From a virus (taxonomy: Duplodnaviria; Heunggongvirae; Uroviricota; Caudoviricetes), in IMG/VR virus record IMGVR_UViG_2565956711_000007: a DNA stretch of 41,286 nt. The stretch is one strand, 5' to 3'. The notes under the pieces were generated by a model. That model was given only the letters and a program-made list of their open reading frames with translations, made no database searches and was not told where the DNA came from. The translations under genes were made by a program, and so were the position numbers. Below are positions 7,075 through 9,916 of this stretch, piece after piece (position 1 is the first letter of the stretch; the number at the start of each line of letters is the position of its first letter).

Positions 7075-7548
7075 CTAGAACGGAATATCCGAATCGTCGA
7101 AGTTCATAGGTGGTTCGCTGTGATTCCCATGCTGCTGAGATTGCTGTCTTTGTTGCTGGCCGTTATTTCGCTGAGGTGAAGACTGTTCATTGCCTCCTTG
7201 CTTGCCACCAAGCATTTGCATGGTTCCACCAACGCCCACGATGACTTCGGTAGTGAACCGATCCTGTCCGCTTTGATCCTGCCATTTTCTTGTCCGCAAT
7301 TTGCCTTCAAGATAAACCTCAGAGCCTTTTCGCAGATATTCGCTGGCAATTTCTGCCAGTTTCCCGTTCATTACCACGCGGTGCCACTCCGTCTGCTCCT
7401 TTTGCTCTCCAGTTTGCTTATCACGCCATTGTTCTGACGTAGCAACTGTAAGGTTTGCAAATGCCGTTCCTGATGGTGAATATCTGATTTCTGGATCATG
7501 CCCAAGGCGACCAATAATGATCACCTTATTTACGCCTCTGCTTGCCAT
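7075..7548 (-). CDS. ssb: Single-stranded DNA-binding protein
   Basis: 157 aa; OB-fold N-terminus, Gly/Gln-rich linker, acidic C-terminal tail DDSDIPF. Confidence 0.9.
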
Positions 7549-8256
7549 TTATGCCGCCTGTTTTAGCTCGTTAACTCTGATGTTCATTACCTGAACGCAT
7601 TTAGCCTGCGCATCCTCATTGCCAGCCATTAATTGCCAGTCATGCTGATAACGCTCGATGAGTTTTTTCTTGTCAGTTTCTGTTGATGCATAATCGCTGA
7701 AGTCTTTCAGGATTTGTTCGCAGTCAACCGATGGAGATGTCTGGTTGGTATTTTCTGGTGATGGTTTGTTATCTGATGCTGGGATTGCCCATCCCGGCAG
7801 CGATGGAGGGAGCCAGTAAAATCCTGTTCCATCCTTCAGTTTTGCCCTGTGCCACCCCTGTTTTTTATCAAGAGATGTTTGTGCGAAACCTTCCTCAAGG
7901 TTATACAGATACCGACCGATTCCCCACTGTACGGCAGCGCGCTTCATTGCACCGGAACGACCACCTTTGACGGCTTCTACCTGCGTGTTTTCAGCAGCAT
8001 CCCATTTGGTTACCCATTCGGAATCAATCCTGATTGATATGCCGCATTCAACGCCGCCGTTGTTAGGAATATCGCGGTATTCATTGCGCCATCCTGCTTT
8101 GCCACAAACATCGTCCAGGCGTTTCATGATTGCCCGGTTCGTGACATAAGCCAGCACCATAGCCCACACTTTGCCATCGCGTGTTTTACCGCTTTGCTGT
8201 ATTCGCCATTCGATATCTTCAGGGCTGAATGGCTCATCGAATTTATTCAAATCCAT
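7549..8256 (-). CDS. Rad52-family single-strand annealing recombinase (Sak/Erf-like functional slot)
   Basis: 235 aa; motif GKVWAMVLAYVTNRAIMKRLDDVCG...GISIRIDSEWVTKWDAAEN...GGRSGAMKRAAVQWGIGRYLY; sits beside ssb in the bet/erf position. Confidence 0.7.
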   Translation of the reverse strand: MDLNKFDEPFSPEDIEWRIQQSGKTRDGKVWAMVLAYVTNRAIMKRLDDVCGKAGWRNEYRDIPNNGGVECGISIRIDSEWVTKWDAAENTQVEAVKGGRSGAMKRAAVQWGIGRYLYNLEEGFAQTSLDKKQGWHRAKLKDGTGFYWLPPSLPGWAIPASDNKPSPENTNQTSPSVDCEQILKDFSDYASTETDKKKLIERYQHDWQLMAGNEDAQAKCVQVMNIRVNELKQAA

Positions 8257-8264
8257 AAATCACC

Positions 8265-8435
8265 TCAGAATGGACATGGCCCAAGAAAATAACGCTGATT
8301 TAATACTTCGACTCGGGACAAATTAAGGCATACCCGCATTCCTTCGCGGTCGCCATTATGTCGATACCAGAGAGCTTTTTGCGTGTACATGCGCCTCTGT
8401 AACTTGCTCTCCTTCACTGTGGTTGCAAGTGACAT
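8265..8435 (-). CDS. Hypothetical small protein (56 aa), overlaps next feature in another frame
   Basis: ATG 8435 with AAGGAG 6 nt upstream; MSLATTVKESKLQRRMYTQKALWYRHNGDREGMRVCLNLSRVEVLNQRYFLGPCPF. Confidence 0.3.
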   Translation of the reverse strand: MSLATTVKESKLQRRMYTQKALWYRHNGDREGMRVCLNLSRVEVLNQRYFLGPCPF

Positions 8436-8514
8436 GAATATCTCCTTCGTTACCGATTAATTCTTTCATCTGACGAATGAATTCTTCGTCTGACCAGTTA
8501 TCTGTAAAACTCAT
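8356..8514 (-). CDS. Hypothetical small acidic protein (52 aa), translationally coupled to kil-like gene
   Basis: ATG 8514 overlaps kil-like stop (ATGA); MSFTDNWSDEEFIRQMKELIGNEGDIHVTCNHSEGEQVTEAHVHAKSSLVST. Confidence 0.3.
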   Translation of the reverse strand: MSFTDNWSDEEFIRQMKELIGNEGDIHVTCNHSEGEQVTEAHVHAKSSLVST

Positions 8515-8663
8515 TTCCTGCGATACCACGGAAGGTTGATAGCTGATTTCATTGCTTTATTTGCTTCAAGCCACATTTTGGAATCACCAATAAATCTGGC
8601 TATTACTGCTTTGTTTTGTGCAGCACGAAGCATCTGGTGATTGATGGCTATTTCATTGCGCAT
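8511..8663 (-). CDS. kil: Kil-like small protein (putative host cell-division inhibitor)
   Basis: 50 aa MRNEIAINHQMLRAAQNKAVIARFIGDSKMWLEANKAMKSAINLPWYRRK; directly downstream of cIII as in lambda; FIGD.KMW motif recalled from lambda Kil (memory, uncertain). Confidence 0.45.
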   Translation of the reverse strand: MRNEIAINHQMLRAAQNKAVIARFIGDSKMWLEANKAMKSAINLPWYRRK

Positions 8664-8779
8664 AATAAGACCTCAACTCTTTTCCATCCGTCACGTAATT
8701 TACGGGTGATTCGTTCAAGTAAAGATTCATTTAGTTGGAAGGCACCCATGCGAGCGCCTCCCGCGATTGCGTAAATCAT
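8648..8779 (-). CDS. cIII: CIII-like protease (FtsH) inhibitor, short form
   Basis: 43 aa MIYAIAGGARMGAFQLNESLLERITRKLRDGWKRVEVLLCAMK; core ESLLERITRKLRDGWKR matches recalled lambda CIII helix; AAGGA upstream. Confidence 0.7.
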   Translation of the reverse strand: MIYAIAGGARMGAFQLNESLLERITRKLRDGWKRVEVLLCAMK

Positions 8780-8803: not shown

Positions 8804-9772
8804 TTAGTAGGTTATTTTTGTTGCGAATACTTCGCCTTTTACGATGGCTGTTATGATATTTTTAGCAACATCTTCTGATGCGCCAACCTTGATAAGGTCA
8901 GCAAGTATTTTGTTATTTACTTCTTTCCGGTGAGCTTTATCCTTTGCTCTACGCTCTTCTTCTTCCTTGATTCTTTTTTCTTCTGCTATTCTGGCTTGCT
9001 CTTTTGCTTCAGCCTCGCGCCGGATTCGTTCAGCCTCCTCCTGTGCTTTTCTGCGTTCTGCTTCAATTGCTGCCTGCTTTTCTCTTTCAGCTCGTTCTGC
9101 TGCCTCTTTTGCTTCGCGCTGTGCTCGTTGCTCGGCTTCAATGCGTTCACGCTCTGCACGTTCCGCTGCGGCCTTAGCTTCTGCTTCTCGCCTTGCTGCT
9201 GCTTCAATTTCGGCTTTTGCCTTTGCTTCGGCTTCAGCTCTGGCTTTCTCTTCAGCTTCTCTTTTTAAGCGTTCTTCATGCTCTCGCTTTTCCTGCTCCG
9301 CTTTGAGTCTTGCCTCTTCTCTTTGGCGGTCAAATTCGCGATCCATCAAAATCGCTATTTCATGGTCAGACTCAATTTGCTTTGCGAGAGCTTCAGCTGC
9401 TGACTTAGCTTCTTCTTCGGCTTTAATCCGTGCCTGTTCCTCCTCATAATCAGTAAGAGGCTGGCGCGCCTTGGCTTTCAGTTCATCAAGGCGATCACGC
9501 ACTGTCTTGCGGTTAGCATCAATTAGCTTTGGAATTTCCTTCAGTTCAGCAACAAGGTCTTTGCCAAGACCATCGAGATATGTTTTCGTCTGCGCAACTT
9601 TATACGCCAGAGAAGCGATCTCCTTTCTGCCCTTTGCCGTTGTGATATCAGGCACAAAGGACATAACTTCACGTTCAACCTTTTGGAGAATTTCTTCAAT
9701 CTGGTCGGCAGACTGAAATACAGTCATTGCATTTGCTTTTTCAATAACAACTAAATCTGTTACTTCACTCAT
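8804..9772 (-). CDS. Hypothetical protein with long E/R/K/A-rich charged helix (single-alpha-helix or coiled-coil like)
   Basis: 322 aa from ATG 9772 (GGAGG 4 nt upstream); about 150-residue low-complexity EAERAEREKQAA-type segment between structured N- and C-terminal parts. Confidence 0.65.
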   Translation of the reverse strand: MSEVTDLVVIEKANAMTVFQSADQIEEILQKVEREVMSFVPDITTAKGRKEIASLAYKVAQTKTYLDGLGKDLVAELKEIPKLIDANRKTVRDRLDELKAKARQPLTDYEEEQARIKAEEEAKSAAEALAKQIESDHEIAILMDREFDRQREEARLKAEQEKREHEERLKREAEEKARAEAEAKAKAEIEAAARREAEAKAAAERAERERIEAEQRAQREAKEAAERAEREKQAAIEAERRKAQEEAERIRREAEAKEQARIAEEKRIKEEEERRAKDKAHRKEVNNKILADLIKVGASEDVAKNIITAIVKGEVFATKITY

Positions 9773-9784
9773 ATATCCTCCATC

Positions 9785-9811
9785 AAAAAAAATTGCCCTC
9801 ACACTGGAGGG
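9785..9811 (-). terminator. Rho-independent terminator (tL1-like) on leftward operon
   Basis: Stem GCCCTC / GAGGGC, 6-nt loop, followed by 7-U run on minus strand; sits just upstream of the SD of the following gene. Confidence 0.65.
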
Positions 9812-9916
9812 CAAAGAAGATTTCCAATAATCAGAACAAGTCGGCTCCTGTTTAGTTACGAGCGACATTGCTCCGTGTATTCACTCGTTGGAATGAATAC
9901 ACGGTGCTTATTCATA

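Follow-up and report, generated by a model that had tools for sequence, protein, structure and literature searches.

Two small overlapping open reading frames in a lambdoid phage of the Sf6 type, between its kil and annealase genes

Lambda Gam is a coiled-coil dimer of 138 aa. For another small phage protein, Arf of P22 (47 aa, PHROG 2445), an accessory recombination function was reported that is genetically defined (Poteete et al. 1991, as cited in PMC12315714); according to the same citation, Arf aids recombination and is not essential for it. Lambdoid recombination modules include a class, with mEp234 as its prototype, in which an SSB and an annealase are present and an anti-RecBCD gene is not recognised (PMC12315714). 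In HK620, an ORF upstream of sak4 that had originally been annotated 'arf', now HkaM, is dispensable for recombineering with Sak4 and SSB and has been termed an orphan, and Sak4 itself is dependent on the six C-terminal residues of its SSB (PMC5928155).

The locus described here comes from a virus of the class Caudoviricetes (IMG/VR record IMGVR_UViG_2565956711_000007); the whole stretch of 41,286 nucleotides that was analysed is referred to as the window. Between kil and the gene of the annealing protein it carries two small ORFs, A and B, which share 80 nt in different frames. We consider it probable, at roughly 70%, that the phage, a lambdoid one resembling Sf6, has here two distinct small genes belonging to its early-left (PL) recombination module, which are carried on one transcript and started by different routes of initiation.

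Layout and identity of the interval

Along the minus strand, a cIII homologue of 43 aa (8648..8779; Pfam Lambda_CIII, E 4e-15) lies upstream of kil (50 aa, 8511..8663, minus strand; Pfam Lambda_Kil, E 1.7e-20; PHROG 2055, E 1e-35). There follow ORF A, whose 52 codons specify a small, acidic product of 52 aa (8356..8514, minus strand; PHROG 2123, E 3.5e-40), ORF B, with 56 codons for a basic product of 56 aa modelled as a helical hairpin (8265..8435, minus strand; PHROG 1723, E 9.4e-36), and the gene of a Rad52/22-family single-strand annealing protein of 235 aa (7549..8256, minus strand; Pfam PF04098, E 7e-26; PHROG 1097, E 1.5e-129). A bacterial-type SSB (7075..7548) comes after the annealase gene. 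The stop codon of kil, TGA at 8513..8511, and the ATG of ORF A at 8514..8512 together form the tetranucleotide ATGA, and ORF A ends with TAA at 8358..8356. ORF B extends from its ATG (8435..8433) to a TGA (8267..8265) in the +1 frame relative to A, with a distance of 79 nt from start to start. Its Shine-Dalgarno sequence AAGGAG (8442..8447, minus strand) is located inside ORF A and is separated from the B ATG by the 6-nt spacer ATATTC. The shared stretch of 80 nt (8356..8435, minus strand) comprises codons 27-52 of A with its stop and codons 1-27 of B, and the annealase gene starts at 8256, 8 nt past the B stop. In all these respects the first-pass annotation had described the interval correctly: a 52-codon ORF overlapping the stop of a kil-like gene as ATGA, a 56-codon ORF that starts inside it in another frame behind an AAGGAG, and an overlap of 80 nt between annealase and kil.

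No terminator was detected between kil and the annealase gene, and the single weak promoter-like match there is below the expectation from shuffled sequence. An RNA structure around the ribosome binding site of B might have tied B to the translation of A, but the predicted one (minimum free energy -27.8 kcal/mol, z = -0.69) is not notable either, so that nothing suggests a further layer of regulation of A and B. An ORF of 354 aa at 8804..9868 (minus strand) is homologous to Sf6 gene 33 and to Orf53 of phage D3; it contains a long, highly charged repeat region rich in E, A, K and R, a homologue carries the label 'TolA' in one record, and another homologue directly precedes B in a Kluyvera locus (L094).

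The 2.9 kb around A and B are 98.4% identical to Shigella phage Sf6, where A is gene 30 and B is gene 29, with record notes that point to HK97 genes 42.1 and 42. Both are also annotated in mEp235, HK022, HK106, Sf101 and CUS-3. The two ORFs are therefore Sf6 gp30 and gp29 and their homologues, already known as annotated ORFs. The homologues in Sf6, HK97, HK022 and the mEp phages are the same genes. The region in the window has 97-98% DNA identity to Sf6 and the same 80-nt overlap, and the coordinates of A and B relative to kil and the annealase gene in Sf6 are those of the window. The window allele differs from Sf6 by two substitutions in the tail of A and by a run of five adenines, and in no other material respect. 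Matches to the PHROG families are full-length for both proteins (residues 1-51 of 52 for A, residues 1-56 of 56 for B), and the 62-aa Salmonella form and the Serratia/Yersinia-type form of B match PHROG 1723 as well. Pfam and NCBIfam gave no match for A, B, Arf or a 35-aa form of A from HK140. The PHROG label 'recombinase' of the A and B families is backed by no Pfam or NCBIfam match, and no experimental basis for it was found. Nor was a paper testing gene A or gene B found in the literature surveyed, to which the Sf6 and HK97 genome papers do not belong.

The stretch is present in 853 of 5,426 complete E. coli genomes, and many Stx-converting and P22-like phages have it too. In the E. coli genomes RefSeq PGAP places no hypothetical protein, one or two on it, and often either both ORFs or one of the two go without annotation; among the RefSeq hits H186-H200, near-identical DNA is annotated with kil only, with one hypothetical protein or with two. 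ORFs of 50 codons arise abundantly by chance in the window, 5 kb of it alone holding 77 ORFs of at least 25 aa. A and B therefore prove nothing by their mere presence, and the support for them must come from comparison with related sequences.

Gene B and the shared stretch

Protein searches recovered B in a 56-aa form and, from Salmonella and Citrobacter, in a 62-aa form; the hosts of the family belong to Escherichia, Salmonella, Enterobacter, Citrobacter, Kosakonia, Yersinia, Serratia, Kluyvera and Pseudocitrobacter. Homologues in viral contigs were obtained by scans with divergent single B proteins, a scan with the B alignment having returned only copies of 100% identity. Residues S10, R14, A21, R25, E43, N46, L51, P55 and F56 are invariant, and the C-terminus is conserved as NQRYFLGxxPF. 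Across twelve lineages the synonymous sites are saturated (pS 0.6-1.0) and pN amounts to 0.03-0.5; the ratio pN/pS is about 0.1-0.4 in both halves of the gene, the first 27 codons and the rest behaving alike. Among 54 Sf6-like haplotypes, the unique part of B has accumulated 14 synonymous and 5 nonsynonymous changes, as compared with 4 and 14 in the unique part of A (Fisher p = 0.003).

B does not need A as a neighbour. In 46 of 135 distinct loci it occurs without A, including Salmonella phage S9-5, Kluyvera, loci of the Serratia/Yersinia type and most of the Salmonella loci with the 62-aa form, and the first 18 codons of B are conserved at the protein level even in loci that lack A. In the Serratia/Yersinia-type loci it is the stop of a Kil-like gene that overlaps the B ATG. 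A GGAG, GAGG or GGGG motif is found 5-9 nt before the B ATG in each of the 28 distinct upstream contexts. The AlphaFold2 model of B, built on an alignment of 49 sequences, is a helical hairpin with helices at residues 7-27 and 30-49 (pLDDT 91.7), in which the conserved C-terminal tail is less ordered than the helices. Foldseek comparison of this model with the PDB and BFVD gave no match at E <= 0.001; what it returned were generic helical hairpins (Rop, designed binders, ferritin-like helices), uninformative with respect to function. Judged by sequence comparison, B is a real, independent and solid gene.

Within B, a patch of about 70 nt (window 8290..8360, compared with mEp235, L003, 1650-1720) has diverged by about 50% between Sf6-like and mEp235-like phages, and its flanks are nearly identical. 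It represents a mosaic joint inside the gene, and most of the changes are synonymous or conservative in frame B. A comparison of Sf6 with mEp235 for suppressed synonymous change in the overlap is confounded by this mosaicism and was discarded; for the same reason, the analysis of the overlap made use of more distant lineages that carry A.

Dual coding of the 80 nt was considered and rejected, constraint being confined to frame B and synonymous change not being suppressed. Of nine polymorphisms in the overlap, eight are synonymous in B and nonsynonymous in A, one is nonsynonymous in both, and none is synonymous in A and nonsynonymous in B (binomial p = 0.001). The B-silent ones change A by S>R, T>A, A>T/P/S, E>K, S>G and P>T. 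Between the A-bearing lineages, the overlap has pN/pS of 0.18-0.44 when read in frame B and of 0.98-2.65 when read in frame A, the differences cluster at position 3 of the B codons, and frame-B pS remains at 0.57-1.03, which is not a suppressed rate. The length of the overlap itself varies among loci from 29 to 95 nt, and in one lineage (L265) A stops after 29 nt of it. Furthermore, the A frame is open across the B start even in Salmonella loci without the N-terminal module of A, and in those loci the open frame can be regarded as a by-product of the B sequence. The C-terminal half of A is most simply read as an unconstrained run-on, terminated by whichever stop in its frame B happens to contain first. 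As constraint acts in frame B only, the overlap is an ordinary one and ought to be left out of any tally of dual coding.

A different view of the two frames is suggested by phage HK97, where two 1-nt insertions join codons 1-43 of A to codons 19-56 of B (L002 1516-1767, aligned to window 8265..8514). The product is the 83-aa gp42, and the own frame of B is destroyed. Because HK97 lacks the first 18 codons of B, the N-terminus of B is not indispensable for a viable laboratory phage. Other fusions exist as database proteins of 81-82 aa with many different junctions, most of them singletons and one, P0021, present on 36 contigs; they, like the insertions of HK97, could be real alleles or sequencing errors. 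A run of five adenines in the window, CGCAAAAAGC (8376..8380, minus strand), replaces the AGAAA of Sf6 and of the consensus, changing codon 46 of A from E to K and leaving B unaltered; only 2 of the 54 haplotypes have it.

One might therefore ask whether the true product is an A-B fusion made by programmed +1 ribosomal frameshifting in the overlap, A and B being halves of a single gene. HK97 encodes such a fusion in a single frame, fusions of 82 aa recur in databases, P0021 with its 36 contigs among them, B invariably lies in the +1 frame with respect to A, and on the adenine run of the window tRNA-Lys could conceivably slip by +1, out of frame A and into that of B. That run, however, is specific to the window allele, the consensus reading CGCAGAAAGC, and a conserved slippery site is not apparent among the alleles compared. 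The junctions differ (residues 26, 29, 43, 46-50), as sporadic indels or sequencing errors would have it and a fixed site would not, and the overlap varies from 29 to 95 nt. B moreover has its own conserved Shine-Dalgarno sequence and ATG, occurs where A is missing, and keeps its first 18 codons as protein there. We regard frameshifting as exceedingly improbable, and the reading of A and B as two separate genes is retained in what follows.

ORF A, its N-terminal module and its start

The part of A that appears to matter is its N-terminal module, codons 1-21, MSFTDNWSDEEFIRQMKELIG (8452..8514, minus strand), which carries an Arf-like SDEEFI motif and a helix predicted at residues 9-20. The module follows the motif MS(F/I)(T/A)D(N/T)W(S/T)(D/E)(D/E)xF(I/V)RxM and recurs in four diverged lineages that carry B: that of the window, a Pseudocitrobacter lineage (L093), L263 and L265. 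Between the four, codons 2-21 show pN/pS of 0.11-0.57, with 0.11-0.32 in most pairs and pS up to 0.92, and protein-level constraint in A is limited to about these 21 N-terminal codons. In some homologues of 8452..8490 the stretch EFIRQMK (21 nt) is duplicated in tandem and in frame, with two copies in P0049 and three in P0036. The structure model of A, which is based on a shallow alignment, consists of one helix (residues 9-20) and a tail whose pLDDT is below 50.

The start of A is equally characteristic. In all 89 distinct related loci A begins with ATGA or GTGA on the stop of an upstream gene, which may be kil, a cIII-like gene, KilR or an ORF of 75 aa of unknown nature; in related phages without kil (L005, L006) A starts on the stop of the cIII-like gene. 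This invariable arrangement fits translational coupling. The module is also found with other tails, as an ORF of 35 aa in HK140, before a RecT module, of 60 aa in SPN9CC and of 35 aa in L265, and the lengths of A encountered altogether are 35, 52, 53, 54, 56 and 60 aa. In HK140 no B lies downstream. The module there is an unannotated acidic ORF of 35 aa (L005 1501-1608) ending in EKDDDSDSE, placed between the cIII-like gene and a 103-aa ORF that precedes RecT and whose start it overlaps by 23 nt.

On the other hand, A has evident weak points. In the 54 Sf6-like haplotypes, the 4 synonymous and 14 nonsynonymous changes in its unique 79 nt are not distinct from neutral expectation (p = 0.51), even though codon position 3 holds 12 of these 18 changes (p = 0.009); one haplotype carries a nonsense allele and three carry W7C. 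The neutral ratio and these alleles mean that A is at best weakly constrained within the Sf6-like clade. The family is small as well: a profile search of 1.84 billion proteins yielded 29 representatives at 50% identity.

These observations lend some weight to the view that only B encodes a functional protein, and that A is translated, or merely open, through reinitiation at the ATGA after kil or cIII. If translation of A matters at all in that case, it would act in cis, keeping the mRNA open or occluding the ribosome binding site of B, and the peptide would be dispensable. The near-neutral ratio in the unique region, the nonsense and W7C alleles, the length range of 35-60 aa with an unconstrained tail, the 46 of 135 loci in which B does without A, the tiny size of the A family and the frequent omission of A by PGAP can all be accommodated in this way. 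What is difficult to accommodate is that the amino acids of the module are kept between lineages while the synonymous sites turn over, that the module is met in front of unrelated sequences, in HK140 without any B behind it, and that it has the SDEEFI motif in common with P22 Arf, for which the literature cited above reports an accessory recombination function. An effect in cis would also sit more easily with some notable RNA structure around the B ribosome binding site than with the observed z of -0.69. A function confined to B is a credible contender, but an unlikely one. A is the weaker gene of the two and, to judge from its conservation between lineages, probably real.

The question raised by the first-pass annotation, whether both genes are real or only one, is answered by the comparative data in a way that favours both, with a qualification: B is supported over its whole length and A over about 21 N-terminal codons that lie outside the overlap, and dual coding of the overlap is dismissed. 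Coding-type conservation in one frame alone, which that annotation had named as evidence against the pair, is what the 80 nt show, in frame B; outside them the module of A is conserved too.

For two separate genes the following course of events can be envisaged. The PL transcript would serve for the translation of both A and B. After termination at the stop of the gene upstream, which in the window is kil, ribosomes would reinitiate at the ATGA and start A, whose functional part is presumably the Arf-like module of some 21 residues, an amphipathic, acidic helix; the rest of A would be an unstructured and unconstrained tail that ends at the first in-frame stop within B. B would have an initiation of its own, at the strong Shine-Dalgarno sequence that lies within A, giving a basic helical hairpin with the invariant C-terminal PF that may be functionally tied to whichever annealing protein follows. 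The acidic helix of A and the basic hairpin of B would then both serve the recombination module.

Taken at the level of sequence, the pair is ordinary: previously annotated small phage genes whose overlap is constrained in a single frame. The result bears mainly on annotation, where pipelines call zero, one or two genes at this place. B deserves a call in every case; A deserves one too, as a short Arf-like gene with no information in its C-terminal half.

Annealase genes and comparison with known systems

The lead of wider value is that B is linked to annealase genes, which belong to three families. In every distinct locus but one, the gene after B encodes a single-strand annealing protein, at a gap of 7-16 nt or with an overlap of 13-17 nt, and these proteins belong to Rad52_Rad22, to ERF (two sequence types) or to the AAA_24/Sak4-like family. 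In the exception, phage S9-5 (L004 1690-2160), an HNH homing-endonuclease gene (Pfam HNH_3) sits exactly between B and erf, and this insertion is the sole break found in the adjacency. The linkage is the strongest clue from which a function of B might be guessed, and it makes B a candidate accessory factor that might find use in recombineering built on Rad52-like, Erf or Sak4 proteins.

Members of the B family all end in Pro-Phe, often after an acidic residue (GEQPF, SELPF); in the window this C-terminus lies at 8265..8288. The end resembles the C-terminal tip of SSB, and the SSB of the window ends with DDSDIPF (7075..7095). From the adjacency to three annealase families, the invariant P55-F56 and the published dependence of Sak4 on the tail of its SSB, one may conjecture that B is a dedicated small cofactor common to unrelated annealases, acting through its PF tip as SSB does through its DIPF tip. 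By mimicking the SSB tail or competing with it, B could load the annealase on SSB-coated ssDNA or displace host nucleases that interact with SSB. We consider such a cofactor rather improbable. If the idea is true, lambdoid recombination modules have a fifth component, B, that has gone unrecognised.

Several described proteins invite comparison with B. Kil (Pfam PF06301) is a small helical protein of the same operon, and its helix-GD-helix looks like B by eye; a relationship was rejected, as hhalign of the B family against Kil gave a probability of 3%. HkaM of HK620 is, like B, a small orphan ORF adjoining an annealase gene. HK620 was not among the matches listed for a tblastn search with a B-family protein (60 of the 69 matching records being listed), and the similarity of HkaM to B is one of position only.

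With lambda Gam, to whose region the first-pass annotation had compared the slot, A and B share a place on the map, after kil and before the gene of the annealase, and nothing else: similarity of sequence or fold is absent, and the sizes are 138 aa as against 52 and 56 aa. Apart from the position, a functional equivalence, in which B (most plausibly) or A would inhibit RecBCD or another host nuclease, could be argued from the mEp234-type modules, which have SSB and annealase and no recognised anti-RecBCD gene (PMC12315714), since mEp234 carries both A and B. Yet Pfam and NCBIfam returned no match of A or B to Gam, GamL, Abc2 or MuGam, nor to any other family, and the fold search with the B model, without a match at E <= 0.001, gave generic helical hairpins only. 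B is, furthermore, present in modules that already have Abc2 (HK97, L263). An anti-nuclease of the Gam kind is for these reasons very unlikely; the comparison stands as one of position and fails for the proteins.

As regards A, the likeness to P22 Arf is closer. Both proteins are small and acidic, and both genes come after kil and before an annealase gene. The start of P22 arf, like that of A, overlaps the end of kil (arf 2369-2512, kil 2502-2690 in L096), and an N-terminal (W/F)SDEEFI is common to both proteins. Against the Arf profile (PHROG 2445) the window protein scores weakly, with E 0.038, and three homologues with 0.062, 0.04 and 8.4e-4, the alignment always pairing residues 4-27 with profile positions 2-25; hhalign gave a probability of 57% and E 1e-4 over 19 columns only. 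In the reverse direction, all 29 matches of the A-family profile among the 1.84 billion proteins were A variants, indel variants or low-complexity sequences, and Arf did not appear. With the similarity weak and the reverse search negative, A is called Arf-like and not a member of the Arf family. The C-terminal halves of the two proteins are unrelated, and P22 has no B gene, Arf directly abutting erf. By analogy, the likeness of the A module to Arf suggests an accessory recombination role, and the order kil-arf-erf of P22 is a nearer analogue of the present locus than the gam region of lambda.
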